Positions 11,737-32,839 of a stretch of 32,839 bases of DNA are shown here, in pieces. Position numbers and translations under genes: made by a program. The number at the start of each line of letters is the position of its first letter. Within the stretch, counting starts at the first letter, position 1. The notes under the pieces were generated by a model. The model worked only from the letters and a program-made list of their open reading frames with translations, ran no database searches and was not told the origin of the DNA. Source of the stretch: Myxococcota bacterium (GTDB lineage Bacteria; Myxococcota; JACRCW01); contig JBFMGU010000118.1 of the NCBI GenBank assembly GCA_040752415.1, forward strand, positions 1 to 32,839. Reading direction: 5' to 3'.

Positions 11737-11906
11737 AGCCAAAGCGGTATTTCAGACCGCACTCCCAGGGTGCCGGCGCGTTCTCCGTCCGGTCCATCAG
11801 CCGGCACGCGGCGCTTCCCGATGAAACACCCGCGTGCGGGCCCTGGTGGCAAACTGTTGAGCGGTGCCCGCACCCTGGGAGTGCGGCCTGCAATGCCGCT
11901 TTGGCT
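11737..11906. repeat. REP-like inverted doublet (REPIN/BIME-like), 37-bp arms with internal hairpins
   Basis: 11737-11773 and 11870-11906 are inverted repeats with 3 mismatches. Each arm is GGAGT plus a GCGGY...RCCGC hairpin plus TTTGGCT. Internal 8-bp stems at 11770-11777/11800-11807 and 11834-11841/11866-11873. Confidence 0.85.
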
Positions 11907-12045
11907 TCAAAGTCCGAGGGACGCCTGTGCCAGACGGAGGCCAAGCGGCGTGACAACCTTCAACGGGAACCGCAGTCATTCGCCCGGCCGCCAGACCCGC
12001 CACGCAGCTTTTGCCAACACCTGTGGGAGGGGGTATTCCCGCCCC

Positions 12046-13023
12046 ATGCAGCGTTTTGGGCACTACGTCCTCAAGCAGCGCCTGGGTCGGGGCGGCATGT
12101 GCGAGGTGTTCCGGGCCCGACGGGAGGACGCCCACGCCGGCACGCCCGACGTGGCGCTCAAGTTCCTGATGCCCGAGCTGCAGGGCGACCCGCGCGCCGT
12201 CGAGCTGTTCCGCAAGGAGGTGGAGATCAGCGTCCGGCTGGGCCACCCCAACGTGGTGCAGGTTTATGAGCACGGCCTCGTCGACGGCGTGGTGGCCTTC
12301 CTGGCCATGGAGCTGCTGGACGGACCCGACCTGGCCGAGCTGCAGCAGGCGGCCTTCCGCCAGGGCCTGGCCCTGGGCCTTCCGCTCAGCCTGCACATCT
12401 GCATCCAGGCGCTGCGCGGCTTGGACCACGCCCACACCCTGACCGGGCCCGGCGGCGTCCCCCTGGGCCTGGTCCACCGCGACATCAGCCCCGACAACCT
12501 GTTCTGCACCCTCGCCGGCGCGGTGAAGGTGGCCGACTTCGGCATTGCCAAGCTCAGCGCGCTGGAGGGCTTCACCGACCCGCGCTTTGGCCTCAAGGGC
12601 AAGCTGGCCTTCATGGCGCCGGAGCGGGCGCGCGGGGAGCCGGTGGACGCCCGCTCCGACCAGTTCAGCATGGGCCTCATCCTCTACGAGCTGTGCACCG
12701 GCGTGCGGCCCTACCGCTCGCAGCCGTCCGAGCCGATGGAGGCGCTGATGCGTCGGGTGGCCAGCGGCGACGTCCCGCGCGCGCGCAAGATCCACCAGGA
12801 GATCCCCAAGGGCCTGGACGCGGCCATCATGCGCGCGCTGGATCCCCGGCCCCGCGGTCGCTTCCGCAGCTGCGCGGAGTTCGCCGACGAGCTCGAGGCC
12901 ATCATGCGTCGCGAGCACCTGCCCGCCGCCAGCAATGAGCTCAAGGTGTTGATCGAGGAGCTCTACCCGGCGGGCTACCAGCGGGTGATGCCCAACGTGG
13001 CCGGCCCGGTGCCGCTGCCCTGA
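12046..13023 (+). CDS. Hanks-type Ser/Thr protein kinase, cytoplasmic, kinase domain only
   Basis: ATG 12046. LGRGGMCEVF, VALK, HRDISPDN, DFGIAK, FMAPE, DQFSMG; no TM segment. Confidence 0.92.
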   Translation: MQRFGHYVLKQRLGRGGMCEVFRARREDAHAGTPDVALKFLMPELQGDPRAVELFRKEVEISVRLGHPNVVQVYEHGLVDGVVAFLAMELLDGPDLAELQQAAFRQGLALGLPLSLHICIQALRGLDHAHTLTGPGGVPLGLVHRDISPDNLFCTLAGAVKVADFGIAKLSALEGFTDPRFGLKGKLAFMAPERARGEPVDARSDQFSMGLILYELCTGVRPYRSQPSEPMEALMRRVASGDVPRARKIHQEIPKGLDAAIMRALDPRPRGRFRSCAEFADELEAIMRREHLPAASNELKVLIEELYPAGYQRVMPNVAGPVPLP

Positions 13024-13050
13024 CCCTTCGGATCCGCAGGCAACGGTCCA

Positions 13051-13079
13051 TTGACACCCCCATGGCCCTTGCGTAGAAG
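13051..13079 (+). promoter_or_regulatory. sigma70-type promoter of the rpsP operon
   Basis: TTGACA (13051-13056), 17-bp spacer, TAGAAG (13074-13079), about 70 bp upstream of rpsP. Confidence 0.7.
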
Positions 13080-13151
13080 CGCCGGTCCCTACGCCTGGCC
13101 CGAAGCCTGGGCCTGGGGCGTGATCACATCTTCGAAGGAGTTGGAAGCATC

Positions 13152-13406
13152 ATGGCCGTGACCATTCGGCTCTCCCGGCAGGGCGCCAAGAAGCACCCGT
13201 TCTACCGCCTGATGGTGGCGGATTCCCGTCGTGGTCGTGACGGCAAGTTCCTGGAGTGGGTTGGTACGTACAACCCCGGGACCAAGCCGGAAACGCTGGA
13301 CTTCGAACTCGACCGCATCAACGAGTGGATCAAGAAGGGCGCCCAGCCCTCCGACACGGTCCGCAACCTCCTGAAACGGCACGCGGCCCGGGCCCCCAAG
13401 GCCTGA
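13152..13406 (+). CDS. rpsP: 30S ribosomal protein S16
   Basis: [26 protein letters not shown]...[14 protein letters not shown]...[16 protein letters not shown]. Confidence 0.98.
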
Positions 13407-13499
13407 CAGCCCGCAACCCAAGCTCCTCTCCAACACCATCGAGCACGGTCCCCGGGGCGGTCCTGGCCCGGTCGGCACCGTTGCATCATGGGGTATCCA

Positions 13500-13793
13500 A
13501 TGCGCTCACTGGTGGACTATCTGGCTCGGGCGTTGGTGGATGATCCGTCGCAGGTGGAGGTGACGGAGACCGGTGATGACGCCGGGAGCACCCTGCGCCT
13601 CAAGGTGGCCAAGAGCGACCTGGGCAAGGTGATTGGCAAGAAGGGTCGCACGGCGCGCGCGTTGCGCACGGTGCTCTCCGCCGCCAGCACCAAGGCCAAG
13701 AAGCGCTACGTGCTGGAGATCCTGGAGCCGCCCGCGCCGCAGGGTGCCGGTGGCGCGCCCGCGCCCAGCAGCAACGGGGCCACGGCCCAGTGA
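13500..13793 (+). CDS. khpA: KH-domain RNA-binding protein (KhpA/YlqC)
   Basis: LVDYLARALVDDP...DLGKVIGKKGRTARALRTVL, in the canonical position after rpsP; alternative start at 13488. Confidence 0.93.
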   Translation: MRSLVDYLARALVDDPSQVEVTETGDDAGSTLRLKVAKSDLGKVIGKKGRTARALRTVLSAASTKAKKRYVLEILEPPAPQGAGGAPAPSSNGATAQ

Positions 13794-14341
13794 CCACGCC
13801 GGGGGGACGGGTCCACGTGGGGCGGATTGCGCGCGCCCACGGGATCCGCGGCGGACTCAAGCTCAGCACCTTTGATCACGAGGCGCCCAGCATCCGCGTG
13901 GGCGTCTCCCTCCATTTGCTCGACGAGAACGCTCGCCCGGTGCGCACCCTGAAGGTGACCCGCGTGCAGCGCCAGCCCGACGGGTTCGTGGTGCAGGCCG
14001 AAGGGATCACCACGCGTGAGGCCGCAGAGGCGCTGGAGGGAATGCAGATCCACGTCGACGCCGAGACGTTGCCTGCGCTGCAGGAAGGTGAGTTCTGGGC
14101 CTTCGAGATGGTGGGCTGGCAGGCGGTGGATGAGAACGGGCAGGCGCTGGGAGAGATTGCCGCGGTGCAGCCGGGGCCGGCGCATGATTTCCTGACGGTG
14201 CGCACGCCGGGCGGGGATTACGACGTGCCGCTCGTCGAGGCGTTGGTGGTGCGCATGGACCGCGCGGCGCGCACGGTGGTGCTGCGCCCCCCGGAAGGCC
14301 TGCTGGACGACGTGGAGCTGAAGTCCCCGCCGGCTCGCTGA
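13790..14341 (+). CDS. rimM: 16S rRNA processing protein RimM
   Basis: VGRIARAHGIRG...TREAAEALEG...LPALQEGEFW...PPEGLLD; GTGA overlap with khpA. Confidence 0.95.
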   Translation: MTTPGGRVHVGRIARAHGIRGGLKLSTFDHEAPSIRVGVSLHLLDENARPVRTLKVTRVQRQPDGFVVQAEGITTREAAEALEGMQIHVDAETLPALQEGEFWAFEMVGWQAVDENGQALGEIAAVQPGPAHDFLTVRTPGGDYDVPLVEALVVRMDRAARTVVLRPPEGLLDDVELKSPPAR

Positions 14342-14428
14342 CACCAGACCAGGGCGCTGCGAGGATTGCTCTGCAATAGGGCTCCCGTGTTGCACGTCAG
14401 GAATCCCTGGCGTCCCTTGGAGGGGAAC

Positions 14429-15229
14429 GTGACTGACGGGACACACGACACCGGAAACGGACCCGTGCTTCCCTCGGCGGACGCCGGTCCGCGACGCTGG
14501 GGTGTTCTCGGAAGCTTCGCCTGGGCGGTGTTGAGCATCGTGCTCGCGCTCATCGCTGAGGCCATCGCCGTCGGGATCTGGGCGTTCAGGGTTGGCTATC
14601 GCTCGGCGCGGGAAGGCCGGTCGCCCGATCTGGACACGGAGTTCTTCGAGAAGCTGGCGACGAGCGGCGATGTCACATCACTCTCGCAGTTCCTTGGCAC
14701 GCCCGTCGGCCTTCTCGTCATCTGGACCGCGGTCCGACTCCGGAAGGGGTCCACCTTCCAAGAATATCTCGGATGGCGTGACCCTGGCGGCCAAGCGCTC
14801 ATCTTCTGGTCATTCGCCGCCCTCTTCTGCGCGCTCGCCACCGACGTCGTGGGTCAAGTGTTGGAAGTGGACATGGGAGGGGCGCAGCTCGTCGAGGAAG
14901 TCCAGAGCGCGGAGTGGGGCTGGATGCTCGTCGTTGCCGTGGTGGTGTTGGCCCCACTGAGCGAGGAAACCCTGTTCCGCGGGTTTCTATTCGAACCGCT
15001 GCGGGCATCCGTGGCGGGACCCGTCGCCACCGTGCTCCTGACCGCCAGCATCTGGACCTTCATTCACGTGCAGTACGACTTCCCGACCCTGTGCTCGCTC
15101 TTCCTGCTGGGCGTTCTGCTGGGAACCGCTCGCGTCCGCACGAACTCGCTCGTGGTGCCGCTGGTAATGCACGGTTGCTGGAACGCGGGGGCCTTGGCTG
15201 CGGCCTGGCTCATTGCCTCTTCGCCGTGA
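14429..15229 (+). CDS. CPBP family intramembrane metalloprotease (Abi/CAAX)
   Basis: GTG 14429 after GGAGGGG. Multi-TM protein with APLSEETLFRGFL, WTFIH and MHGCWN motifs. Confidence 0.88.
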   Translation: MTDGTHDTGNGPVLPSADAGPRRWGVLGSFAWAVLSIVLALIAEAIAVGIWAFRVGYRSAREGRSPDLDTEFFEKLATSGDVTSLSQFLGTPVGLLVIWTAVRLRKGSTFQEYLGWRDPGGQALIFWSFAALFCALATDVVGQVLEVDMGGAQLVEEVQSAEWGWMLVVAVVVLAPLSEETLFRGFLFEPLRASVAGPVATVLLTASIWTFIHVQYDFPTLCSLFLLGVLLGTARVRTNSLVVPLVMHGCWNAGALAAAWLIASSP

Positions 15230-15290
15230 TCAAGCTCTTTCTCCCAACGCGGAGCGAGTATCCCGCCATCTCCGTCGCGTCGAGACTCCT

Positions 15291-16124
15291 GTGCACATCG
15301 ACTTCCTCAGCGTCCTCCCCGAGATCTTCGAGCCCGTGATGCGCCTCGGCGTCGTCGGCCGCGCCGCCACGGAGGGACGCTTCACCTGGCGCGCCATCAA
15401 CATCCGCTCCTTCTCCACCGGTCGCCACCGCATGACCGACGAGGCGCCCTTCGGCGGCGGCGCGGGCATGGTGATGAAACCCGAGCCGCTGGTGAGCGCC
15501 ATCCGCTGGGCCAGCGCGCATGGCCCCGACGTGCCCGCCCCGCCCTGGGACGCCGTGGACACGCCCGCTCCGTCGACGCGTGAGGTGCGCGAAGGTCGCC
15601 GCGTGGTGCTCATGGACGCCGCCGGTCCACCGTTCACGCAAGAGACCGCCCGTCGCTACGCCGCCCTCGAGCACCTGGTGCTGGTGTGTGGTCGGTATGA
15701 GGGCGTGGATGAGCGGGTGCGCGCGCACGTGGATGAGCTGCTCAGCATCGGCGACTACGTGCTGACCGGTGGGGAGCTCGCCGCGCTCGTCGTCACCGAC
15801 GCCAGCGTGCGCCTGCTCCCGGGCGTGCTGGGCAACGTGGCGAGCACGCTGGAGGAGAGCCACTCCGGCGGTCTCCTCGAGTACCCGCAGTACACCCGCC
15901 CCCGCGACTTCGAGGGCGCGCTGGTCCCCGAGCTGCTGCTCAGCGGTGACCACGCGAAGATCGGTCGCTGGCGTCGTCAGCAGGCGCTGGTGCGCACGCG
16001 CGCGTTGCGTCCGGACGTCTTCTCCCGCCTCACCCTCACCGAAGAGGACCAGCGCCTCCTCGACGAGGCCGATGGCAAACCGCCGCCGCCCAGGCGCAAA
16101 CGCTCGCGCCGCAAGGCGTCGTAG
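15291..16124 (+). CDS. trmD: tRNA (guanine-N1)-methyltransferase
   Basis: GTG 15291. DEAPFGGGAGMVMKPEP, LVCGRYEGVDERV, SIGDYVLTGGE, LLEYPQYTRP, LLSGDHAKI. Confidence 0.97.
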   Translation: MHIDFLSVLPEIFEPVMRLGVVGRAATEGRFTWRAINIRSFSTGRHRMTDEAPFGGGAGMVMKPEPLVSAIRWASAHGPDVPAPPWDAVDTPAPSTREVREGRRVVLMDAAGPPFTQETARRYAALEHLVLVCGRYEGVDERVRAHVDELLSIGDYVLTGGELAALVVTDASVRLLPGVLGNVASTLEESHSGGLLEYPQYTRPRDFEGALVPELLLSGDHAKIGRWRRQQALVRTRALRPDVFSRLTLTEEDQRLLDEADGKPPPPRRKRSRRKAS

Positions 16125-16178
16125 CGGTTTTTGGGCGGGTTGGCTCGGGCGCGGGCGTGCGTGCTAGGTCAGGCGCCC

Positions 16179-17039
16179 GTGAATCTTCCCGTCCGCTCCA
16201 CGCCCCGGGCCCTGCTGCGCAGCCGGATCGTTGATCCGGAGATCGCCAGCGCCATCGACCGCAATCCCACCGCCGTCAATGAGCTGGGCTTTGACCCCTG
16301 GGGTCTGAATCCCGAGGACGCCAAGGTCTATTTCTCCGTCGCCCGGAAGATCTACAACTACTTCCGCCCGGAGATTCACGGCATTGAGCACGTGCCCGCG
16401 GGCCGCGTGCTGATCGTCCCCAACCACTCCGGGCAGATTCCGTTCGACGGCCTGGTGATCGCCGTGGCGTGCCTGCTCCACGCCAAGCCGCCGCGGTTGT
16501 GTCGCGCCATGGCGGAGCGCTGGTTCCCCACCATCCCCTTCGTCAATGAAGCGTTCAGCCGCTCCGGCGTCGTCGTGGGCGACCCGATCAACTGTCGCAA
16601 CCTGCTGGAAGCGGAGAACGCCATCCTGGTCTTCCCCGAGGGTGCGCGCGGCTCGGGCAAGGTGTTCCAGCAGCGCTACCAGCTGCGGCCCTTTGGTCGC
16701 GGGTTCATGCGCCTGGCGCTGCAGACCGACACGCCGGTGGTCCCGGTGGCGGTGGTGGGCGGCGAGGAGTCCATCGTCAGCGTGTACAACTGGAAGGGCC
16801 TGGCCAAGCTGCTGGGCACGCCCTACGTCCCCATCAGCCCGTGGCTGCCGGTGTTGGGCCCGTTGGCGTACCTGCCCATGCCGGTGAAGTTCCACGTCCA
16901 CTTCGGGGAGCCCATGCGCTTCACCGGCCCCTTCGACGACGAGGACAGCGAGATCGACAAGAAGGTCCAGAAGGTGATGGACCGCGTGCAGGGGCTCATC
17001 AACGAGGGGCGCGCCAAGCGACGCTCCCTGTTCTTCTGA
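16179..17039 (+). CDS. Lysophospholipid/glycerol acyltransferase (PlsC-like)
   Basis: NHSGQIPFD (HxxxxD-type) and VFPEG motifs, plus N-terminal GFDPWG; start uncertain (GTG 16179). Confidence 0.87.
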   Translation: MNLPVRSTPRALLRSRIVDPEIASAIDRNPTAVNELGFDPWGLNPEDAKVYFSVARKIYNYFRPEIHGIEHVPAGRVLIVPNHSGQIPFDGLVIAVACLLHAKPPRLCRAMAERWFPTIPFVNEAFSRSGVVVGDPINCRNLLEAENAILVFPEGARGSGKVFQQRYQLRPFGRGFMRLALQTDTPVVPVAVVGGEESIVSVYNWKGLAKLLGTPYVPISPWLPVLGPLAYLPMPVKFHVHFGEPMRFTGPFDDEDSEIDKKVQKVMDRVQGLINEGRAKRRSLFF

Positions 17040-17051
17040 CGGAGGCAGCGC

Positions 17052-17987
17052 GTGGCCCATGTGCTGGTGACCGGAATGGCCGGCGGTCTGTCCCGCCTCG
17101 TCGCGCAGCGGCTGCTGGCGCTGGGCCACCAGGTCGTGGGCGCCGACTACCGCCCGCTCCCCGCGCCGCTCCCCGACGGGATGCCCTTCTACCAGGCCAA
17201 CTACAACAAGACGCGCATCGAGGACATCTTCAAGCGCCACAAGGTCGACAGCGTGTTGCACCTGGGCCGCGTGGGCAATCTCAAGGAGTCCATGGGCAAA
17301 CGCTTCGACCTCAACGTGGTGGGCAGCCAGAAGATCATGAATCTCTGCCTGCAGCACGGCGTGAAGCGCCTGGTGGTGCTCTCCACCTTCCACATCTACG
17401 GCGCGCACCCCGCCAACCACATCCCCATCTACGAGGACGAGCCGCTGCGCGCCGGCACCAACTTCCCGCAGCTCGCCGACGCCATCCAGCTGGACAACAT
17501 GGCCTGCCAGTGGGTCTACCAACACCGCAAGGTGCGCACCGTGGTGGTGCGGCCCACCAACGTCGTGGGGCCCCTGATCCACAACACCATGAGCCAGTTC
17601 CTGCGCCTGCGCTACATCCCGCACCTGGCCGGCTTCAATCCCATGACCCAGTTCATCTACCAGGATGACCTCGCCGACGCGGTGGTGGCCGCGCACGAGG
17701 GCGACGCCGCGGGCGTGTTCAACCTCACCGGCGACGCGGTGGTGCCCTGGCGCACCGCGCTCAAGCTGGTCAAGGCCGACACCTTCCCGCTGCCCGCCCC
17801 CTTGGTGAGCGGCTATCTCCGTCTCATCAGCGGCTTCCCGCAGTACCTGATGAACTTCTTCCTCTACCCCTGCGTCATCAGCGACCGCGCCTTCCGCGAG
17901 AAGTTCCCCTGGCGCCCGCAGGTCAGCCTGCAGGACGCGCTGTGGCGCACCGTCGAGGAGACGCGCCGCGCGCAGGGAGCGGCCTGA
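17052..17987 (+). CDS. NAD-dependent epimerase/dehydratase family protein
   Basis: [11 protein letters not shown]ossmann motif, [28 protein letters not shown]. Confidence 0.87.
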
Positions 17988-18034
17988 ACCCCGTCCTCAA
18001 CCCCCACACGCCGCACCGCGGCAGGAGATGCACC

Positions 18035-18802
18035 ATGGAGCTCAAGGGAAAGACAGCCATCATCACCGGCGGAGCCTCCGGCCTCGGCCGCGCCACCGTG
18101 GAGCGCTTCCACGCCGCGGGCGCCAACGTGGTCATCCTGGACCGTGAGCAGTCGGACGGCGCCAAGGTGGCCGCCGCGCTGGGGAGCCGCGCGCTCTTTA
18201 CCCCCGCCGACGTCACCAGCGCGGACCTGGTGAAGGCCGCGGTGGACAAGGCGGCTGCCCAGTTCGGTGCGCTGCACATCTCGGTGAGCTGCGCGGGCGT
18301 GGGCACCGCGGCACGCACGCTCAGCAAGAACGGTCCCATGGACCTCACGCTGTTCCAGCACGTCATCAACGTGAACCTGGTGGGCACCTTCAACGTGGTG
18401 CGCCTGGCCGCCGAGAAGATGTCCACCAACGAGCCCAACGCCGACGGGGAGCGCGGCGTCATCATCAACACCGCGTCCGTGGCGGCCTTTGATGGCCAGA
18501 TTGGCCAGGCGGCCTACGCGGCCAGCAAGGGCGGCATTGTCTCCATGACCCTGCCGGTGGCGCGTGACCTCAGCAAGAACGGCATCCGCGTCATGACCAT
18601 TGCGCCGGGCATCTTTGACACGCCCATGCTCGCCCTCCTCCCCGACGACGCGCGCGCCGCCCTCGGCGCCTCCGTGCCCTTCCCGCCACGCCTGGGCAAG
18701 CCCGCGGAGTACGCGCAGCTGGCCGAGGCCATCGTGCTCAATCCCATGCTGAACGGGGAGGTGATCCGCCTGGACGGCGCGCTGCGCATGGCGCCCAAGT
18801 GA
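18035..18802 (+). CDS. SDR oxidoreductase, 3-hydroxyacyl-CoA dehydrogenase type II (HSD10-like)
   Basis: [65 protein letters not shown]. Confidence 0.93.
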
Positions 18803-18808
18803 GTGCCC

Positions 18809-18840
18809 GCGGCGGTGGCTCGCGCTCGGGTTACCGCCGC
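18809..18840 (+). terminator. GC-rich 3' hairpin after the SDR gene (no U-tract)
   Basis: GCGGCGGTGGCTCG-CGCT-CGGGTTACCGCCGC: a 14-bp stem whose three G-U pairs form only on the + strand RNA. Confidence 0.45.
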
Positions 18841-19121
18841 ATCCTCCCGTTGTCGGCCCTGGCCCGCGCCGCGACGTTCAGCCGACGGGTCGACGTCGTC
18901 AACGTGACCTGTCCGCGGTGATGCTCCCGTCGTTCGTTGGGAGCGGATCCGCAGCGTCTGCGTCATTTTTCAGCCAGGTTGCTTGCGCTTTGACATGCCG
19001 AATGACATAGCGGGGTGCGACAGCGGGCGACACAGTAGGTGGGCTCGGGGTCGCGCCCTAGGTCAATCCAGGCCGGGCGGTGAGTGTGCTGCTGACGCAG
19101 TACGAGAAAGCAAGAAAGCAA

Positions 19122-19325
19122 ATGCCAGTCGGTACCGTGAAGTGGTTCAATGATGCCAAGGGTTTCGGGTTCATCGCGCGCGAGGGCGGCCCTGATGTGT
19201 TCGTGCACTTCAGCGCCATCTCGGGCCAGGGCTTCAAGAGCCTGCAGGAAGGCCAGCGCGTGGAGTTCGAGGTTGTCCCGGGCAAGAAGGGGGAGCAGGC
19301 GCAGAATGTCCGGCCCGTGGGCTGA
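19122..19325 (+). CDS. Cold-shock protein (CspA family)
   Basis: 67 aa, [15 protein letters not shown] (RNP1) and DVFVHF (RNP2). Confidence 0.97.
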
Positions 19326-19361
19326 CTGAAGCGTTTGCACTTCTGGGCTGATGAGGCCCTC

Positions 19362-19390: not shown

Positions 19391-19407
19391 GTTGCCCGAA
19401 ATTCGGC

Positions 19408-24028: not shown

Positions 24029-25918
24029 ATGTTGATTCGCCGCACCCGAGCCCTTCCCTTCACGACCCTCATGCTGGCCGCGCTGATGGCCGCCCCGGCG
24101 CACGCGCAGCAGCGCTGGCTGCTGGATGAGCTGGATGTCCGCCCGGACATTCCCAATCCCGCGCTGGTGGAGGGCGCGCCGCTGTTCGAGCGCAGTCTCT
24201 CGCCGGAGGAGTACCGCGCGTGGGTGACGCATCCGCCGTCACGGAAGCTGGATGAGCTGGCGCGCGCCAACCCGGTGCCGCGGCTGGGCGGAGGCAACCC
24301 GCAGTTCGCGGCGGAGACGGTGGGCGACATCCTCGTCGTCGACGGGACCAGCCAGACGGTGCTCTCCGTCAACCAGGATGGCAGCGCGTGCACCGGCGGT
24401 CCCAACCAGTGCTACAAGGTGCTCAACCACCAGGGCCGCGCGGTCGACCGCATCGTCGAGGACGCGCTGGACGTCCTGGGCGACAACTACGACATGATCG
24501 TGGTGTGGACCACCTTCGAGGACTACAGCGGAGGCGCGTACTACTCGCCGCTGCGCAATGACATCCAGGGCCTGGGCAAGTGCAACCAGAGCCAGGGCCA
24601 GGACGCCATCTTCGGCTGCATGTTCGACCAGTCCGGCGGGCTCAACCTGCAGGGCGAGATCTTCATGAACAGCGTGGACATGTGGATGCAGACCGACCAG
24701 CAGATGGGTCTGGGCTACACGGAGGATGACTTCGAGAGCCAGATCTACAGCACGCTGGCGCAGGAGAGCGCGCACCGCTGGCTGGTGGGCTTCCACATCA
24801 ATGACCCGGACACCGGCGCGGACAGCACCGCCCTGCTCGGCCGCGACCGCAGCCACTGGAACCTGAAGGTGGACGCCAACGGCTCGGTGATGGACGGCCT
24901 GGACTGGGAGCACAACGGCGGCAGCAACTTCGAGATCGTGGGCGACAACGACACCTACAGCCCGCTGGACCTCTACGCCATGGGCCTGGCCTCCCCCGAC
25001 GAGGTGGAGCCGTTCTTCATCGTCAAGAACGCGTTCAGCCAGGACCTCAAGGACATCTACCGCTCCTGGGGCCAGAACATCAGCGGCTACATCCCCGACG
25101 GCAACGACGAGCTCTTCGTCCCGCCCGTGGAGCTGACCGGCCCCCTGGCCGCCACCGGCACGCTGCAGGAGGTCACCATCGACGACATCATCACCACCAA
25201 CCGCGCGCGCGTGCCCTCCGCCGCCAACAGTCCCAAGGAGTTCAAGCAGGCCTTCGTGCTGGTGACCTACCCGGGCGAGTCGCAGAGCTCGATCAGCAAC
25301 AAAGTGGAGCAGCTGGAGCTGGTGCGCACCGTGTGGGAGCAGTGGTTCGCGGCCAAGACCGGCGGGCGCGGCACCGTGTGCACGGCGCTGGATGGCGTCT
25401 GTCGCCCGGCGCAGCCGGAGATCCGCGACCTGCGCATGGGCGAGTGGAAGCGCGGGGAGACGGTGGACGCCTTTGTGTCCATCTCCAACCCCGGCGGGCG
25501 CATGCTGGAGAGCGCCACCGCGCGCATCAGCACCGCGCAGGGCTTCATCACCCTGGAGCAGGACAGCGTCACCATCACCAACGTGGACGCCGGGCAGCTC
25601 AAGGAGAGCGGCACGCCCTTCCGCCTGCGCGCGGAGAATGACCTGCCCTGCAGCGTCACCAGCGTCCCGCTCACCGTCACCGTGGAGACCGCGGGCAACG
25701 CGCCGGTGAGCCGTCAGTTCAGCGTCTCGGTGGGGGAGTGCACCGCGGGCCAGGGGGGCAGCTCCACCTCGTCGGGTGGCGTGGCGGTGGGCCCGGGTGG
25801 CGCCGGAGGCATCCCGGTGGGTCCGTGCCGCTGCGCCTCCCCCGCCGCCGAGGGCGCCCCGCTCATGGCGCTGGCGCTGCTGGGCCTGGGCACGCTGCTG
25901 CGTCGTCGTCGGAAGTGA
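24029..25918 (+). CDS. Secreted zincin-like protein with MYXO-CTERM sorting tail
   Basis: Signal peptide ending AHA-Q; QESAHRW...SHW...GSVMDG...YSPLDLYAMGL; Ig-like C-terminal domain; tail CRCAS...ALALLGLGTLLRRRRK. Confidence 0.8.
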   Translation: MLIRRTRALPFTTLMLAALMAAPAHAQQRWLLDELDVRPDIPNPALVEGAPLFERSLSPEEYRAWVTHPPSRKLDELARANPVPRLGGGNPQFAAETVGDILVVDGTSQTVLSVNQDGSACTGGPNQCYKVLNHQGRAVDRIVEDALDVLGDNYDMIVVWTTFEDYSGGAYYSPLRNDIQGLGKCNQSQGQDAIFGCMFDQSGGLNLQGEIFMNSVDMWMQTDQQMGLGYTEDDFESQIYSTLAQESAHRWLVGFHINDPDTGADSTALLGRDRSHWNLKVDANGSVMDGLDWEHNGGSNFEIVGDNDTYSPLDLYAMGLASPDEVEPFFIVKNAFSQDLKDIYRSWGQNISGYIPDGNDELFVPPVELTGPLAATGTLQEVTIDDIITTNRARVPSAANSPKEFKQAFVLVTYPGESQSSISNKVEQLELVRTVWEQWFAAKTGGRGTVCTALDGVCRPAQPEIRDLRMGEWKRGETVDAFVSISNPGGRMLESATARISTAQGFITLEQDSVTITNVDAGQLKESGTPFRLRAENDLPCSVTSVPLTVTVETAGNAPVSRQFSVSVGECTAGQGGSSTSSGGVAVGPGGAGGIPVGPCRCASPAAEGAPLMALALLGLGTLLRRRRK

Positions 25919-25922
25919 GCGC

Positions 25923-26642
25923 TCAGGCGGGGGACGGGCCCAGCACCGCGGCCCGCTTCTGCAGGCGCCGGTATTCCTTCAGCACCTTGGTCGGGTAACC
26001 CGCGTAGAAGCGCGTGCGCAGCTCGCGGTCCGCCAGGATCTCGCGCGCCGCGGTGGGCCCCGCGTTGTAGGCCACCAGCGCCGCACGCAACGAGCCAAAG
26101 CGACGCACCAGCTCGCTCAGGTAGCTGGTGGCCAGCGCCACGTTCAGCTCCGGGTCGAACAGGTTGGTGTCGCGCCCCAGCGCCACGCCCTGCCGCTCCG
26201 CCAGCCAGCGCCCCGTGTCGGGCATGACCTGCATGAGCCCCATGGCGCCCTTCTGGCTCACCGCGAAGGAGTGGAAGCTGCTCTCGGTGCGGATCACCGC
26301 CACCACCAGCAGCGGGTCCAGCTCATGGCGACGGGACTCCCGCAGGATGGCCACCGCCACCCGCTTCTGCACGTGCGGCGGGAGACCAGAGCTCTGCACC
26401 GCGGCCAGGATGCCCAGGCGCTCGGCGTCCTGCAGGAGCGGCCCGTCGTCCAGGTCGGCCACGCGACGTTGCAGGCGTTGCAGCTGGCGGTCCCGCAGGA
26501 GCAACAGCGCGTGCAGCTCCTCCGCCGCCACGGTGTCCGACTCCAGCACGTCCAGCACCGCGGGAGGCTCCCACAGCGCGGCGCCCAGGCAGGACAAGAG
26601 GGCGGTCACCAGCGCAACCGCGGCGGCCATCCTTCCGCCCAT
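25923..26642 (-). CDS. Lytic transglycosylase (SLT domain)
   Basis: DPLLVVAVIRTESSF, GAMGLMQVMP, LFDPELNV, ALVAYNAGP; N-terminal hydrophobic segment; start uncertain (26630, 26642 or further upstream). Confidence 0.9.
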   Translation of the reverse strand: MGGRMAAAVALVTALLSCLGAALWEPPAVLDVLESDTVAAEELHALLLLRDRQLQRLQRRVADLDDGPLLQDAERLGILAAVQSSGLPPHVQKRVAVAILRESRRHELDPLLVVAVIRTESSFHSFAVSQKGAMGLMQVMPDTGRWLAERQGVALGRDTNLFDPELNVALATSYLSELVRRFGSLRAALVAYNAGPTAAREILADRELRTRFYAGYPTKVLKEYRRLQKRAAVLGPSPA

Positions 26643-26836
26643 GACGCTCCCGTTCCCGGCGCCCCACGAGGTGACGCGCGACGCGCGCACCGCGGCCCCC
26701 TCCCCACGACGCCCGGCGTGCCACGTGCCCGCGGACTGCCAGCCCCCCTGCTCCAGCGCAGATGATGACAACTTGGACCCCAATCGGCCGGTGGCGACTG
26801 TTCCGCCCCCCGAACATCCGGCCGACCGCGCTTCAG

Positions 26837-26852
26837 AGCAGCGGCCATGCCA
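26837..26852 (-). promoter_or_regulatory. Candidate sigma54 (-24/-12) promoter for the lytic transglycosylase
   Basis: Minus strand TGGCATGGCCGCTGCT has GG-N10-GC spacing and matches consensus TGGCACGNNNNTTGCW with two mismatches. Confidence 0.5.
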
Positions 26853-27036
26853 TGCACCCGGGATTCACACCGGTCGCTGCGGGAATGCGCGTCACGCGTC
26901 AGGGGCAATCATCACGTGCCCACAGCCCTTGATGCCGCGCGCGGAACCACCCGTTGTCGTCGGAGCGAGCGCACCTCACGGGGAGCGGCGTGAACACGCC
27001 CGACGTCACGTGGCGAGCGGGACGCGCCCGCGCGTG

Positions 27037-28188
27037 TCAGGCGGAACGCAGATCCCGGAGCAGCTCCCCGAAGCCCGTGAAGGGGCTGCCGTCCTGGTGC
27101 TCTGCCTGCAGCGTGAGCAGCTCCTCGTCGGAGGTGCTGGCGTAGGCGGCCACCACGCCGGGGTCCAGCTGCGTGCCGCTGGCCAGCGCAATGAGGTCGC
27201 GCGCGTCGGAGATGGGGCGGCCCTTGCGGTGGGGCCGGTTGCTGGTGATGGCGTCATGCGCGTCCACCACGGCGAAGATGCGCGCGCCGAGGTCAATGGC
27301 CTCTCCGCGCAGGCCCGCCGGGTAGCCGCTGCCGTCCCAGCGCTCGTGATGCTGCGCCACCACCCGACGCGCGTGCTGCAGGAAGGCAATGGGAGCGAGC
27401 AGCTCGTCGCCCATGAGCGGGTGGCGCTGCATGATGGCCCACTCCTCCGGCGAGAGCGGGCCACGCTTGCGCAGGATGTGATCCGGCACGCCGATCTTGC
27501 CCACGTCGTGGAGCAGCGCGCCGGCGGTGCAGTCCGCCAGCGCCTCGCCCTCCAGGCCCATGCGGGTGCCCAGGCAGCGCGCGTAGGCGGCCACGCGTCG
27601 GCTGTGCGCTTGCGTCTCGGTGTCGCGGTAGTCCAGCGCGGCCAGCAGGCCACACAGCAGCTCCGCGGTGCGCTTGGTGACGGCGTCCTGCAGTCGCGCG
27701 TTGGCCTGCTCCAGCTGGGCGGTGCGCTCGCTGAGGTCGCGCTGGAGGCGGTCGCGCTCCCGCACCACGCGGGTGAGCGAGCAGGCGCGGTCCAGTGTGG
27801 CGAGCAGCGCCTCCTGCGAGAAGGGCTTCTCCACCACCTGGTACACCCCCACGCCGTTGACGGCGGTCATGACGCTGTGGAGGTCCACCGCGGCGCTGAT
27901 GAGCAGGCGGCTGGCCTCGTTCTGGATGCGCGCCGCGTCCCACAACACGTCCAGGCCGCTGTCCCGCCCCAGCATGAGGTCCACCAGGATGGCGTCGTAG
28001 GTGTCGGCCTTGAGGCAGTCGCGCGCCTCGGCGCGGTCGGCGGCCAGCACCACGGTGAACCCGCTCCGCTCCAAGAGCACGCGCAGCATGAGGCGCAGGT
28101 CCCGGTCGTCGTCGACCACCAGCACCTTCAGCGGTGGACGCTGCGGGGTGTGGTCGAAGATCTCGGTGTGGGGGATCACCAGGCTCAC
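27037..28188 (-). CDS. Response regulator with HD-GYP c-di-GMP phosphodiesterase domain (RpfG-like)
   Basis: REC domain (VLVVDDD, LVDLML, EKPF), coiled coil, then HSRRVA, LLHDVGKIG, HHERWDGSGYPAGL. Confidence 0.92.
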   Translation of the reverse strand: MSLVIPHTEIFDHTPQRPPLKVLVVDDDRDLRLMLRVLLERSGFTVVLAADRAEARDCLKADTYDAILVDLMLGRDSGLDVLWDAARIQNEASRLLISAAVDLHSVMTAVNGVGVYQVVEKPFSQEALLATLDRACSLTRVVRERDRLQRDLSERTAQLEQANARLQDAVTKRTAELLCGLLAALDYRDTETQAHSRRVAAYARCLGTRMGLEGEALADCTAGALLHDVGKIGVPDHILRKRGPLSPEEWAIMQRHPLMGDELLAPIAFLQHARRVVAQHHERWDGSGYPAGLRGEAIDLGARIFAVVDAHDAITSNRPHRKGRPISDARDLIALASGTQLDPGVVAAYASTSDEELLTLQAEHQDGSPFTGFGELLRDLRSA

Positions 28189-28227
28189 GTCCGGGCACCG
28201 TAATGGACGTGGTGGAGGGCCACAAAT

Positions 28228-28258
28228 GCGAACGCCCCCGGTTTAAGGGGGCGCTCGC
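28228..28258 (-). terminator. Hairpin after the second csp (possible terminator, weak U-tract)
   Basis: Minus strand GCGAGCGCCCCC-TTAAACC-GGGGGCGTTCGC followed by ATTTG. Confidence 0.5.
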
Positions 28259-28298
28259 TCCATCCCGCCATCAAGAGAGCGGGCTGGCTTGCCGCGGT

Positions 28299-28502
28299 TC
28301 AGCCGACGACGCGGACGTTCTGGGCCTGCTCACCCTTCTTGCCGGGCACCACGTCAAACTCCACGCGCGCGCCCTCCTGCAGGCTCTTGAAGCCGTCCGA
28401 CTGGATGGCCGAGTAATGGACGAACACGTCCTCACCGCCCTCGCGGGAAATGAAGCCGTAGCCCTTTGCGTCGTTGAACCACTTCACGGTGCCAACTGCC
28501 AT
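28299..28502 (-). CDS. Cold-shock protein (CspA family), second paralogue
   Basis: 67 aa, [15 protein letters not shown] and DVFVHY. Confidence 0.97.
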
Positions 28503-28643
28503 CTTCCAACCCTCTTTCTGACGGGGCGCACTCCCACGCCCCCCTGCAATGCCGCGGGCCTCCGTGACCCGGTCGGCGCCCCCCGCGTGGGCTTCATGAT
28601 GCCAGCGAGTTGTGAACCCCTCCCTCAGGGTCCCCCTTCAGGC

Positions 28644-28659
28644 AGCGGCGTCTATGCCA
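28644..28659 (-). promoter_or_regulatory. Weak candidate sigma54 promoter for the second csp
   Basis: Minus strand TGGCATAGACGCCGCT (GG-N10-GC), about 140 bp upstream of the csp start. Confidence 0.3.
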
Positions 28660-28769
28660 CAGCGTAACAAAGGTTTGAAGGGCTTTTGTCGTCGTCCCGC
28701 GGCCCCTCTCGCGTTTTGCCAGGGAGCACGCGAACTTGCCCCGCCTCGGTCAACTGGCGGCCGGATCGC

Positions 28770-29414
28770 TCAGCCGGCGTCGGGGCCCGCGTCGGAGGGC
28801 CCGCCGTCGTCGGAGGAGGCGCCGGCGTCGCAGCGGAAACGGAACGGCACGAAGCTCTCCGGGTCCGGATCCACCCCGCCCACCAGGCGCTGGTCCTCCG
28901 CGGTGGCGCCGGTCTCGTCGGAGACGGTGACCCGGAGGAGGAAGGGGCCCTGGCACAGGAGGCGGTGGAGGGGCACGGACTCGTTGGGGAGGAAGGCGGT
29001 GAGGCCGGTCTTTTCCTGGCCGCCGCCTACGCGGGCGCACACCGTGGTGCGCGTGCCGGCGCTCTCGAAGATCACGCCGCCGTCGGGCTCCAGGTAGCGG
29101 TAGCTGGGCTGCACCTCCGGCCCCAGGCCCACGGTGCGCACGCTGAGCCAGAGGTGCTGGCCGCCCTGGGGGCCGCGCGCGGCGGTCCAGCGGTCCCCGT
29201 CCGCCACCGCCACGAACTCCGAGGAGCCGCGCCCGATGGTGAGCTGCGGGTCGCCGGCGATGATGCCCGGGCCCGCGGGACAGCTCCCCACGCCGCCGGT
29301 GGTCCCGCCCGGCCCGCCGCTGGTGGTGGGACAGGCCGCGGCCAGCCCCAGCAGGGAGAGGCCCCAGGCCAACGCGCTGCGCAACCAGCCGGGAAGGATG
29401 CGGGCTTGCTCCAC
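28770..29414 (-). CDS. Hypothetical lipoprotein
   Basis: Lipobox-like LLGLAAA-C, Gly-rich linker, GPQGGQH motif, DAG-repeat C-terminus. Confidence 0.72.
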   Translation of the reverse strand: MEQARILPGWLRSALAWGLSLLGLAAACPTTSGGPGGTTGGVGSCPAGPGIIAGDPQLTIGRGSSEFVAVADGDRWTAARGPQGGQHLWLSVRTVGLGPEVQPSYRYLEPDGGVIFESAGTRTTVCARVGGGQEKTGLTAFLPNESVPLHRLLCQGPFLLRVTVSDETGATAEDQRLVGGVDPDPESFVPFRFRCDAGASSDDGGPSDAGPDAG

Positions 29415-29502
29415 GACGGGGATTCCTTAGCGCGCGCCTCCGCCGGCGTCAGGGGCTGCGCCCCAACCAGCCGCTCCGCGGGCGTGCCGACCTCGTCAGC
29501 GA

Positions 29503-29691
29503 GCCGCGACCTGGAGTGCGGCGGGCCCTCGCCGCCCTGGTCAGCGCCGCGTGCGTTCTCGACGTGCGGAACGTGCTCGACCTGGTGGCGACGGGGCGTC
29601 GACGCCGCCGCGACCCGCGACCGCTGACGAGGGTGCCACACGCTCGGCGCTGACCAGGGCGGCGAGGGCCCGCCGCACTCCAGGTCGCGGC
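29503..29691. repeat. Perfect 47-bp inverted repeat containing a REP-like GGAG-tagged palindrome
   Basis: 29503-29549 is the exact reverse complement of 29645-29691, with a 95-bp spacer. Each arm contains TGGAGT-GCGGCG-GGCCCT-CGCCGC-CCTGG. Confidence 0.9.
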
Positions 29692-29745
29692 CCCGTCACG
29701 ACGTGTGAGCGCCCACTGTGCCGCTTGTCTCGACGAGAAACGCGC

Positions 29746-31953
29746 TCACTGCCCGCCCAGCGCGGCCATGGCGTTGCGGGCCACGTCGGCGTCCGGGCCG
29801 TTGGGCAGGATGTCCAGGTAGCGCTTGTAGTGCTTGATGGCGTTCTGCTTGTCGCCGCGGAACTTGTGGACCTCACCCAGGCCCAGGTGCGCCTCGGCGT
29901 AGCGGCTGTTGAGCTGCAGGGCGCGGTCGAACTCCCCGAGCGCGGCGGCCATCTTCTCCTGGTCGATGTAGCACCAGCCCAGTCCCACGTGCGGCTCGGC
30001 GCGGTCGGGGGAGAGCTCGTTGGCCTTGAGGTAGAGCGCCAGCGCCTTCTGGGTCTGGCCGCGGTCGCGCGCCTTGTCGGCCAGCGAGAGCGCGCGGTCG
30101 AACGTCATGGGCTTGGCGTCCTTGTCCTTCTCCTTGTCCGCGGTGGGCTTGGGGGCCTCCTCCGGCGCGGGCTCCTTGGGTTTCTCCTCGGCGGGAACCG
30201 GCTGGGGCGCCTGCTGCGCGGCGGGCGGCGGAGCGGCGGCGGCGCGGGCCTTGGCCAGGATGGCCTTGGCGCGTTCATGGCCGGCGTTGTCCTTGAGGAG
30301 CAGCTCCGCCTGCACGCCGGCCTCGGGCAGCTTCCCGTCGGCTTCCAGGAGCGCGGCCAGGCGCCAGCGGGCCACCAGCGCGTCCTGGTTCTCCCGCAGC
30401 AGCGCTTCCAGGTCGTTGGCGGCCAGCGCGCGACCCCCGGCATCCAGCCCACGCGCCTCGGCGAGGATGATGGGAAGGAACGGGTCGCCGGCCGGGCGCA
30501 GGCTCCTGGCGCGGTCCAGGTAGGGTTGGGCCTCCTTGGCCACGCGACGGGACACGTAATAGGCGGCCACCGCGGTGTTGGGCAGGTAGTCGTTGGGCGC
30601 GGCGCCCAGGGCCTCCTTGGCCAGCTCGAAGGCGGCCTTGAAGTGCTCCAGCTCGGCGGCCTGGGTCTTGTCCAGCCGCTCCTTGAGCGCCTTGGCCTCG
30701 GCCGCGTCGGGGGTGCCCTCGGTGACCGTGCCGCCGGTGGCCTTGGTGAGCCCGGCCAGACGCGCGCTCAGCTCCGCCTTCTCCTCGCCCAGCGCGGTGC
30801 CCAGCAGGCTCTCGGTGAGGCTCTTGAGCGCCAGCGCGTCGCCCCAGCGGGGGCTGGCGGCCAGCGCGGCATCCGCGTTCTGGCGCGCCGACTCCAGGTC
30901 CACCACCGCGCTGCGCAGCCAGCTCTTGCGCGCCGCCTCGAACGCCGCCACCGCCGCGGGGGGACGCGCCAGGCCCAGCCCCGCCTGCGCCTGCTGCACC
31001 AGCTCCGGCGGCACCAGGAAGTATCCGCCCACGCCCACCACCACGGCGCTGAGCGCCACGCCAATGAGCACCGCGCGGCGACGCTGCCCGCGCTGCCACT
31101 CGGCCACCGGGTCGTCGTCATCCAGCGCGGGGTTGGGACCGCTGAGCTCGGCGGGCACGGTGGCGCGCGGCGGTGTCAGCGAGCCCGACGGGGAGATGGC
31201 GCCGGGAGTGGCCACCGGGGTGGGGATGGGGATGGCCACCGGCGCGGCGGGCGCGGGATAGGAGCCGGTGGACTCCGCGCCGCCGGGAGGAGGCACCGCG
31301 GGATAGGGGTAGCCCGGCACCGGGTACATGGCGGGGTAGCCCGGCGGGGCGTACGGCGGGACGGCGCCGGGGGGATAGCCGGGGTAGACCGCGCCAGGGA
31401 CCGGGGGCATGCCAGGCACGCCGGGGACCGCGCCCAGCGGAGCGGGGAACGCGCCGGCGGGGGTCAGCTGCGAGGGCAGGTAGCCCGGCGGCATGCCGGT
31501 GGAGTAGCCCGGCGGCACCGTGGGCGGCATGGCCATGGGCGGCGCGGGCGTGGCGGGCGCGGGCGGCGCCGCGACGGTCGGCACCACCGCCGGGGTGTCC
31601 ACCGCCTGGAAGAAGCTGGCCAGCTCCGCGATGTTGCCCAGGCGCTTCCAGGTCTCCCCGCTCTTGGAAATCTCGTCGTCGCGGGTGACCTTGCGCTCCA
31701 CGATCCACTTCTGGAGCGTGGTGAGCTCCTTGAACGTGAAGATGTTGCCGTTGGGCTGGCGCACCATCCAGTTGCTGCTCTTCTGGCGCGCGGGCGCTCC
31801 CGCGGGTGCGGCGACGGGTCGGGAGCCACCGTCCTCCTTGCGGACCTTGAACACGTGGCCACAGGTGGCGCACTTGACGGTGACGGCCTCGGAACCCAGC
31901 CGGTCGTCGTCAAACTCGTATTCGGTCCCGCATTGTTCGCAGCGAACGTCCAT
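29746..31953 (-). CDS. Zinc-ribbon (MJ0042-type) + GYF_2-like + Pro-rich + TM + TPR protein
   Basis: ATG 31953. MDVRCEQCGTEY...VKCATCGHVF; WMVRQPNG...LQKWI...GETWKRLGNIAEL; Pro/Tyr-rich linker; TM AVLIGVALSAVVVGVGGYFL; C-terminal TPRs (AEAHLGLG...YKRYLDILPNG). Confidence 0.88.
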   Translation of the reverse strand: MDVRCEQCGTEYEFDDDRLGSEAVTVKCATCGHVFKVRKEDGGSRPVAAPAGAPARQKSSNWMVRQPNGNIFTFKELTTLQKWIVERKVTRDDEISKSGETWKRLGNIAELASFFQAVDTPAVVPTVAAPPAPATPAPPMAMPPTVPPGYSTGMPPGYLPSQLTPAGAFPAPLGAVPGVPGMPPVPGAVYPGYPPGAVPPYAPPGYPAMYPVPGYPYPAVPPPGGAESTGSYPAPAAPVAIPIPTPVATPGAISPSGSLTPPRATVPAELSGPNPALDDDDPVAEWQRGQRRRAVLIGVALSAVVVGVGGYFLVPPELVQQAQAGLGLARPPAAVAAFEAARKSWLRSAVVDLESARQNADAALAASPRWGDALALKSLTESLLGTALGEEKAELSARLAGLTKATGGTVTEGTPDAAEAKALKERLDKTQAAELEHFKAAFELAKEALGAAPNDYLPNTAVAAYYVSRRVAKEAQPYLDRARSLRPAGDPFLPIILAEARGLDAGGRALAANDLEALLRENQDALVARWRLAALLEADGKLPEAGVQAELLLKDNAGHERAKAILAKARAAAAPPPAAQQAPQPVPAEEKPKEPAPEEAPKPTADKEKDKDAKPMTFDRALSLADKARDRGQTQKALALYLKANELSPDRAEPHVGLGWCYIDQEKMAAALGEFDRALQLNSRYAEAHLGLGEVHKFRGDKQNAIKHYKRYLDILPNGPDADVARNAMAALGGQ

Positions 31954-32223
31954 GGTCCGTGGGCGTTGGGGGTCCGTGGCCTTCTGGCCAAACCTTGGGA
32001 GCGGCGTGGACGGGCGGCACGCCGCGGCGTCGCACAGGAGAATCACCTTCCTAGCATGCGGCGGCGCTGGGCGGCCAATGGCGGATGCGGATCCCCGAGC
32101 GCAGCGCCGGGACCAAGGTGGGACTTGTGCGTGGGCATTGCCACGTTGTGGGGCAAGACATGACGCCGCGGCATCCGTCCGCTATGGTCACGGACCGCCG
32201 ACAACTTCTCGAGGTGCACCCGC

Positions 32224-32713
32224 GTGCCCAAAATCCTCATCCAGGTGAGTGCACCGGGGGAGGCCCCCCGACGTCTCTCCGTCCAACAAGGAGGAGATCC
32301 TGGTGGGTCGTTCATCCCAGGCGGACGTCCACCTGGAGGACGAGCAGATCTCCCGCCAGCACTGCAAGCTGCTCCACACCAGCGGTCGCTGGCGGCTGGC
32401 GGACTGCAACAGCGCCAACGGTGTGTACCTGGACCGCGGCGGACGCGGCGCCCCGTTCCTGGCGCGCAATGATCCCGTGGTGAGCGGCGACCGCCTCTAC
32501 ATCGGCCGGTTCACGCTCTCCCTGCTGATGGACGCGGCGGCGGACGCGGAGGCCGCGGAGTCCACGCCCCCGCCCACCGAGGGCGCCGACCGCGACGCCA
32601 AGACCGTGGCCGTGGACCGCGCGCGCATCCAGGACAGCGTGCGCCACCGCCTGGCCACCGACGGAGAAGTGACCACGCCGGGCTCGGGTCGACCGAAGCT
32701 CGGCGGCGCGTAA
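32224..32713 (+). pseudogene. FHA-domain protein, apparently frameshifted near its 5' end (or a sequencing error)
   Basis: GTG 32224 after GAGGTG gives MPKILIQVSAPGEAPRRLSV. The FHA core NKEEILVGRS...ISRQH...DCNSANGVYL continues in the +1 frame from 32285 to the stop at 32713. Confidence 0.7.
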
Positions 32714-32753
32714 ATCACCTACCTGGGAAGACTCCGGTGGGGCCCGGACAGCC

Positions 32754-32839
32754 CGAGCCAAAGCGGTATTTCAGACCGCACTCCCACAGTGCCGGCCGCG
32801 CCATCCCCGAGGCGGAGAGGCCGGCACGCAGAGTTTCCC
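32754..32839. repeat. Second copy of the 11.7-kb REP-like element (truncated by the window end)
   Basis: 32754-32786 is identical (33 bp) to 11735-11767. It is followed by the same GTGCCGGC...GCCGGCAC stem with a different loop, then GCAGAGTTTCCC (GCGGCGCTTCCC in the first copy). Confidence 0.9.

Follow-up and report, generated by a model that had tools for sequence, protein, structure and literature searches.

Systems built of repetitive extragenic palindromic (REP) sequences and REP-associated tyrosine transposases (RAYTs) have, to our knowledge, been studied almost entirely in Proteobacteria, with repeats that carry GT[AG]G tags. In the REP/BIME-RAYT systems (BIME, bacterial interspersed mosaic element) of Enterobacteria and Pseudomonas, of which E. 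coli TnpA-REP (4ER8) is the reference enzyme, the repeats are hairpins that occur outside genes in high copy number and share a conserved 5′ tag. They form inverted doublets which fold into long hairpins, and the HUH/Y1 genes are single-copy and flanked by their own REPs. The same architecture is found for a family of GGAG-tagged palindromes in the genome of a Myxococcota bacterium (GCA_040752415.1; 11.0 Mb in 520 contigs, 69% G+C; here G000). Five copies of the family lie in contig JBFMGU010000118.1 (C22), and this entire contig of 32,839 bases is called the window below. We read these repeats as the REP sequences of a REP/RAYT system, with the 5′ tag GGAG(T), the 3′ foot YYTGG and a mostly inverted doublet arrangement, and give this reading a probability of about 80%. 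The initial annotation of the window had proposed a possibly novel system of the REP/RAYT type. The type is borne out by 275 repeat copies, 79 pairs, two repeat-flanked RAYT genes in the same genome and flanked RAYT genes in other genomes. The novelty of kind is not: the repeats form a new family within a type of repeat system already known, because the widespread enzyme clade to which the RAYTs belong is already labelled "REP-associated tyrosine transposase" by some pipelines.

The closest relatives are described in two surveys. In the accessible parts of Quentin et al. (2018; PMC6006769), class 2 RAYTs are divided into subclasses with GT[AG]G feet, and relatives "from other unrelated phyla" are mentioned for the small NHYH subclass 2.8. 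Di Nocera et al. (2013; PMC3733652), to the extent that the source is available, describe GTAG and CGTC super-families, as well as tyrosine transposases flanked by long inverted repeats (TIRYT/TIRtron), which include an Acidobacteria group. The tag GGAG is absent from the main text of both articles. A literature search for RAYT or REP together with Myxococcota returned, among the papers listed and as judged by titles and abstract openings, no work dealing with such repeats there, and a search by the repeat sequence string gave nothing relevant.

Copy number, pairing and folding of the repeats

The family is real, abundant and far above chance. A strict pattern (GGAGTGCGGY-N6-9-RCCGCYYTGG) has 275 matches in the assembly, and the same pattern read backwards, which served as the control, has none. 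Each copy begins with the tag GGAG, followed by a T and the stem GCGG, and ends with the 3′ foot YYTGG. Two forms dominate: form B, GGAGTGCGGCGGGCCCTCGCCGCCCTGG, with 166 exact copies, and form A, GGAGTGCGGTCTGAAATACCGCTTTGG, with 56. The bare 9-mer GGAGTGCGG is observed 582 times against about 306 expected from the composition of the genome, and since this is only about twice the expectation, the motif is diagnostic only in full.

When the pattern is relaxed slightly, 277 matches are found across the genome, and these resolve into 79 pairs less than 400 bp apart and 119 single copies. In 57 pairs both members are of form B, with the tags facing outward and a span of about 172 bp, and in 14 both are of form A, with the tags facing inward and a span of about 171 bp; the remaining pairs comprise four AA pairs with outward tags and four of mixed or other composition. 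The opposite geometry that had been noticed for the two complete loci of the window is therefore a property of the family. All five window copies lie at the sites and in the orientations first reported (inward at 11.8 kb, outward at 29.5 kb and single at 32.7 kb), and the three stem variants quoted for them are present exactly as given. Of the 119 single copies, 71 are found at assembly breaks, no more than 300 bp from a contig end. Such repeats break short-read assemblies, and the end of the window is one of these breaks.

In single-stranded DNA, the doublets fold into long hairpins. The 11.8-kb doublet forms a single one of −65.7 kcal/mol (z −8.5) and the 29.5-kb doublet one of −113.9 kcal/mol (z −9.4), and in neither case was any of 200 shuffles as good. 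The two arms at 11.8 kb differ by a compensatory change from T-A to C-G, which leaves the local hairpins intact and the long hairpin mismatched at this position. The co-variation of the stems, which the initial annotation had read from the window copies, holds in a larger sample: stem positions 5, 6 and 7 form Watson-Crick pairs in 86, 86 and 53 of 94 distinct hairpins from other genomes, above the maxima of 500 shuffles (66, 73 and 37), with position 5 partly fixed by the search pattern.

A variant of form B has been observed at contig ends, where the foot TTTGG replaces CCTGG in 11 hairpins (e.g., C35:72140-72373, C103:1-118 and C389:3814-3909). At ten places viewed, these hairpins join at the foot to an identical sequence of at least 70–130 nt that runs off the contig. 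The joined sequence has the appearance of a multi-copy element that was left unassembled and always sits at the same position next to the hairpin; its interior is absent from the assembly.

Candidate cognate nucleases and their distribution

The statement that no transposase is in view is correct for the window. To judge from their sequences and flanks, the cognate enzymes are likely to be two single-copy HUH/Y1 nucleases encoded on other contigs, RAYT-1 on C476 and RAYT-2 on C512, each with GGAG-tagged hairpins inverted around it. They were found by listing motif pairs 300–5000 bp apart, translating the sequence between them and testing the open reading frames (ORFs) against NCBIfam. RAYT-1 is a 241-residue ORF (C476:44151-44873, minus strand; C476:44403-44810 as the gene of the profile search). 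It matches NF047646, "REP-associated tyrosine transposase", over positions 4–146 of the 146 in the profile, with an E value of 1.7e-22 and 79.9 bits, the cut-off being 80. A search of the genome with NF047646 gives three matches: the C476 gene with 81.3 bits, RAYT-2 (C512:9306-9692) with 71.5 and a gene on C12 with 33.5. Both RAYTs thus score at or below the curated cut-off, and each has one copy in the genome. On the sense strand, RAYT-1 is preceded by two tandem A-type REPs, 178 and 255 nt upstream, and followed by one inverted A-type REP 125 nt downstream.

RAYT-2 is enclosed by two arms of 78 nt, 91% complementary to each other, each of which contains GGAGTGCGGTGCA..(~34 nt)..CACCGCCCTGG. 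These arms belong to a third GGAG-tagged family, C, a long hairpin of the form GGAGTGCGGTGC[AG]A..~35 nt..AGCACCGCCCTGG with 70 copies, which flanks RAYT-2 at C512:9060-9945 and occurs at about 55 other places, often as doublets about 220 bp apart. The genome holds three GGAG-tagged families and not the "two subfamilies" first proposed. The feet differ between the two enzymes, with TTTG(G) around RAYT-1 and CCCTGG around RAYT-2. We infer that subfamily B, to which the 29.5-kb locus belongs, is served by RAYT-2, because B shares the CCTGGAGTGCGG...CCGCCCTGG ends with the family around this gene.

Two further genes were considered as cognate enzymes. A genome search with PF01797 (Y1_Tnp) finds two short genes only, C12:36-377 and C24:5900-6232; neither is flanked by the GGAG motif, and both were rejected. 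The C24 gene (locus 5500–6500) codes for a 150-aa Y1_Tnp protein (59 bits with PF01797). The hairpins that flank the gene are CCTGCCAATGAGATTGGCAGG, and their core, CCAATGAGATTGGCAGG, occurs 63 times in the genome with both strands counted. Gene and hairpins represent a second, unrelated REP/RAYT-type pair. These hairpins form a separate family, and the gene thereby serves as a positive control which shows that flanking repeats can be recognised in this assembly. On C12 (positions 1–700), a 145-aa Y1_Tnp gene at the contig start is followed by two tandem 105-bp units, each with two hairpins, which occur nowhere else in the assembly.

The motif is spread well beyond this genome. A scan with one genome per species returned at least 125 motif stretches in records whose titles name Acidobacteriota (Pyrinomonadaceae, Blastocatellia, Terriglobia and Thermoanaerobaculia), Verrucomicrobiota, Planctomycetota, Armatimonadota, Chloroflexota and others. 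Many of these copies form inverted doublets, and the hairpin interior varies freely between the fixed ends GGAGTGCGG and CCGCTTTGG, whose constancy is imposed by the search pattern and is no independent evidence. Five foreign genomes hold 131, 4, 110, 165 and 172 copies, with no match of the reversed control. Those titled Acidobacteriota have 110–172 copies, mostly in inverted doublets, and the foreign doublets in the "+ −" arrangement have their hairpins about 20–60 bp apart.

Across six genomes searched with NF047646, six of 27 RAYT-like loci are flanked by the motif on both sides: RAYT-1, one locus each in G041, G044 and G026, and two in G045. The copy in G026 is frameshifted and broken, and it was replaced by RAYT-2 in the alignment of the clade. 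The flanked RAYTs form one clade, 44–54% identical to RAYT-1, in which H55-Y56-H57 and Y116 are invariant, as are the motifs F-S-N-H-Y-H, the Tyr of R-L-x-Y and N-x-V-K-H-G-L-V. The sole PDB match of the clade profile is E. coli TnpA-REP (4ER8, E 6e-9). Most database relatives of 150–233 residues either lack a name or are annotated as "putative transposase", "hypothetical protein" or "REP-associated tyrosine transposase"; a precomputed Pfam match is present in few of them, and some carry PF01797. Long RayT-like ORFs (309–446 aa) of G041, G043 and G044 were rejected as cognates, as they are not motif-flanked. The genes between neighbouring doublets in G043 and G041 are ordinary, e.g., one for a secreted protein which, by eye, is guessed to be a glycoside hydrolase.

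The distribution among relatives is patchy. Among G000 and 40 related genomes, the motif occurs in three: G000 (275 copies), G026 (11) and G016 (1); it was not found in the one genome of the same family among the 40. In the same set the clade profile, at E ≤ 1e-10, recovers the two genes of G000 (234 and 224 bits), two pieces of one broken gene in G026 and a weak match in G030 (44 bits). A second sample comprised 151 genomes of the phylum of G043, and the counts from it overstate independence, as the genomes are related to one another. The motif is present in 19 of them, with at least three copies in 14, and the reversed control gives four single matches in all. A strong clade member (at least 150 bits) is found in ten genomes, seven of which also hold at least three motif copies; the other three lack the strict motif, and in G059, which is among the three, the foot of the REPs is TTTGCC. 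At six of the ten strong loci, GGAGTGCG-tagged hairpins stand on both sides of the gene; none of the five weaker matches of other clades is flanked. In such co-occurrence counts, a single-copy gene between repeats can be missed where a metagenome-assembled genome is incomplete. In total, motif-flanked RAYT genes occur in this genome and at least ten others. The initial annotation had placed the system in a Myxococcota genome; confinement to this phylum does not hold, as both clade and motif occur in records of several other phyla.

A mechanism can be proposed by analogy with E. coli TnpA-REP and IS200/IS605. Single-stranded DNA would fold into the hairpin to which the RAYT binds, and the tag bases beside the stem would act as a guide that places the cut. 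The REP doublets could then be copied or moved in trans by the RAYT, with cleavage and mobilisation taken over from the analogous systems.

Window loci, composite elements and rival explanations

The repeats of the window are collected in Table 1. With gene limits taken from Pfam domain boundaries and one called protein length, all three loci are intergenic. The 11.8-kb doublet lies between a divergent ADP-ribosylglycohydrolase gene (10748-11677, minus strand), 60 nt upstream of its start, and a Ser/Thr kinase gene on the plus strand. It lacks the outer arms of about 60 nt that are typical of the A family. The 29.5-kb element lies just beyond the 3′ end of a TPR/zinc-ribbon gene (stop at 29746), with its own end 5 nt short of the stop codon. 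Its left terminus, GGGGCTGCG, is preceded by TCA, and its right outer arm is degenerate. The third REP follows the stop of an FHA-domain gene (32713) by 45 nt, and its element is truncated by the end of the contig, 55 bases beyond the REP. The outer arm of this element is shorter than the family consensus and begins directly at the TAA stop of the FHA gene; at 32711-32730, this stop is the same TAA that precedes the A-element outer arm, and the element may supply the stop or abut it.

Table 1. Positions of GGAG-tagged repeats and their composite elements in the window
Feature	Position	Strand	Basis
A-type REP doublet (REPIN-like), tags facing inward	11737..11906	.	pattern match, single-stranded DNA fold
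REP, A form GGAGT-GCGGT-CTGAAAT-ACCGC-TTTGG	11739..11765	-	exact pattern match; 56 genome copies of exact form
REP, A variant GCGGC-CTGCAAT-GCCGC	11878..11904	+	pattern match; exact form once in genome
B-type composite palindromic element, ~290 bp	29452..29741	.	alignment to 53 other B elements; right end approximate
REP, B form GGAGT-GCGGCG-GGCCCT-CGCCGC-CCTGG, tag outward	29513..29540	+	pattern match; 166 genome copies of exact form
REP, B form, inverted partner, tag outward	29654..29681	-	pattern match
Left part of A-type element, cut by contig end	32714..32839	.	alignment of 86 A-type arms; start approximate
REP, A form	32758..32784	-	pattern match

In G000, the conserved unit is about 290 bp long and thus much larger than the 27-nt hairpin. 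The alignment of 115 B arms demonstrates that B elements keep their conservation and their palindromic symmetry over about 60 nt beyond each tag, to a total of about 290 bp, and that both ends fall at a sharp terminus, GGGGCTGCG[TC]CA. Their outer arms are of two types, with hybrids (27 XX, 13 YY and 21 mixed). The A elements, as aligned from 86 arms, likewise extend about 60 nt outward, to ..TAAGTACCTGGCCAGAAG...

The terminus of the B elements is common to two other kinds of sequence. The first is a palindromic family, Z, of about 280–340 bp, which has the terminus GGGGCTGCGTCAGAACAAG as in the B composites and no GGAG hairpin. Examples are found at C475:11499-11780, C108:13257-14094 and C17:26053-26634, and its members often lie at contig ends. 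The second consists of three short forms of 99–108 bp (C18:24333-24431, C500:24805-24904 and C257:10621-10728), in which the REP core is missing and the two outer arms of a B composite meet directly. They meet at GTCGTG, a sequence that is repeated on either side of the core in full-length copies, and the short forms are either deletion derivatives or the empty carrier. Copies of Z and other bearers of the terminus are also nested within one another after ..GAACACC-TNA.

Several observations weigh against a REP/RAYT system. The GGAG tag stands one base from the stem and differs from the GT[AG]G of canonical REPs in the available parts of PMC6006769. No RAYT flanked by a B-type hairpin has been found in the genome, though B, which includes the 29.5-kb locus, is the most abundant form. 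RAYT-1 matches no Pfam family at E ≤ 1, PF01797 included. Its reading frame passes through the downstream REP for about 75 more codons and stops only at 44151, so that the REP overlaps or has replaced the 3′ end of the gene, and the C-terminus of the protein may be altered. In the 151-genome sample, seven of the 14 genomes with at least three motif copies lack the clade, and four of the ten strong RAYT loci are not clearly flanked. G043, a closed chromosome of 7.5 Mb, has 110 copies and no clade member, and its sole NF047646 match is unflanked; its repeats seem to be either orphans or the substrate of another enzyme. Finally, the B terminus is shared with the REP-less Z family and the core-less short forms, and something other than a RAYT may move the B composite.

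This last point leads to the alternative that survives best, though we consider it unlikely. Bacterial miniature inverted-repeat transposable elements (MITEs) include, for example, Correia, ERIC and MITEs derived from insertion sequences (IS). According to this explanation, the B-type elements of about 290 bp, the one at 29452-29741 among them, are MITEs whose GGGGCTGCGTCA... inverted repeats are recognised by a DDE transposase that inserts them at TNA, and the inner GGAG hairpins are passengers, e.g., a REP doublet that inserted into the middle of a 99-bp MITE and was then co-amplified. The B composites resemble MITEs in their length, in their terminal inverted repeats and in their preferred TNA flank, where T stands at −3 in 64 and A at −1 in 80 of the 115 arms. 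The sharpness of the termini some 60 nt outside the tags, their reuse by Z and by the short forms, and the nesting of copies point in the same direction. The target sites are less telling: among 20 clean B pairs, a 3-bp direct repeat is present in seven, which is about what chance gives for two independent TNA flanks, an inverted repeat in four and neither in nine; no consistent target duplication was found. A parent IS was not found either, within the 520-contig assembly and the two transposase families tried: PF01609 has two matches, neither bounded by the terminus, and PF13359 has none. Pairing of termini 400–6000 bp apart gave only elements of 582 and 838 bp. Moreover, B cores also exist without outer arms (e.g., C30, C346, C474 and C516), and the A and C families and the flanks of the RAYT genes are left unexplained by a MITE.

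A further alternative is that the repeats persist chiefly because they serve the host, by marking transcript ends or stabilising mRNA, with their spread as a by-product. We consider this improbable, although it is compatible with a mobile origin. In its favour, two of the three window loci begin 5–45 nt from a stop codon, and the hairpins formed by the doublets are very stable. Against it, the 11.8-kb copy is situated where two genes start divergently, no Rfam family is matched by the window at gathering scores or by 20 foreign loci at E ≤ 1 (only sub-threshold look-alikes of miRNA hairpins appear in the latter), the distribution is patchy (3 of 41 genomes including the relatives and 19 of 151 in another phylum), and the association with a nuclease gene suggests that the element is mobile.

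Comparison with described systems

If the repeats are the REPs of a REP/RAYT system, their closest counterparts are the REP/BIME-RAYT systems. As in these, several REP families coexist in one genome, each with its own RAYT paralogue, and the profile matches of the enzymes are to 4ER8 and NF047646. The first difference concerns the repeats, which have the tag GGAG(T) instead of GT[AG]G and, in addition, a conserved 3′ foot, YYTGG. The canonical GT[AG]G foot, as the available text of PMC6006769 gives it, was not encountered; the conserved tag here is GGAG. The second difference concerns the enzyme, as RAYT-1 escapes PF01797 and the HUH motif takes the form H-Y-H. The third is the size of the unit: the G000 doublets span about 171 bp within palindromes of about 290 bp and are much longer than the doublets of the other genomes carrying the motif, with their hairpins about 20–60 bp apart.

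Such a genome, with two RAYT paralogues, three REP families and differing feet (TTTGG and CCTGG), is a natural experiment on the reading of hairpin and tag by a Y1 nuclease. It also bears on annotation, as Pfam misses these RAYTs. More broadly, a well-defined combination of REP ends and RAYT clade recurs in very distant phyla. We tentatively suggest, at slightly less than even odds, that GGAGTGCG-hairpin-CGCTTTGG together with the Pfam-undetected RAYT clade constitutes a distinct, undescribed GGAG-tagged REP superfamily beside GTAG and CGTC, present across Acidobacteriota, Verrucomicrobiota, Planctomycetota, Armatimonadota and Chloroflexota as named in record titles. In G000, it would have diversified into three REP families with two RAYTs and become fused with unrelated palindromic elements, giving "giant REPINs" (REP doublets) of about 290 bp. 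The REPIN literature, in the parts available, reports mostly vertical, lineage-specific inheritance, whereas nearly the same REP ends are found here across several phyla; if the suggestion is true, this superfamily either is far more ancient or spreads horizontally far more readily than the REPIN-RAYT pairs studied so far, which are inherited mostly vertically.

Two described groups come closer to particular features of the system. The 78–95-nt arms around RAYT-2 resemble in description those of TIRYT/TIRtron elements (PMC3733652). In both cases long inverted repeats instead of simple REPs surround the gene, and some of the TIRYT elements have moderately abundant dispersed copies in dimers. 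Their terminal motif is GGGGWSAS, in contrast to the arms here, which are built around a GGAG-tagged hairpin; this and the preceding traits are given as stated in the accessible portion of the article. TnpA-Y1 subclass 2.8 and the neighbouring class 2 groups (PMC6006769), again as far as the source is available, agree with the present clade in three respects: the HUH motif appears as NHYH, the gene has long REPs on its flanks, and relatives are reported from unrelated phyla. Subclass 2.8 is characterised by the motifs W[YH] and YIHYNP and by GT[AG]G feet, whereas the flanked clade described here, compared with it by motif and foot, has NYW[ED]/NFWE, Y[VAT]xxN[PA]VKHGLV and a GGAG foot.

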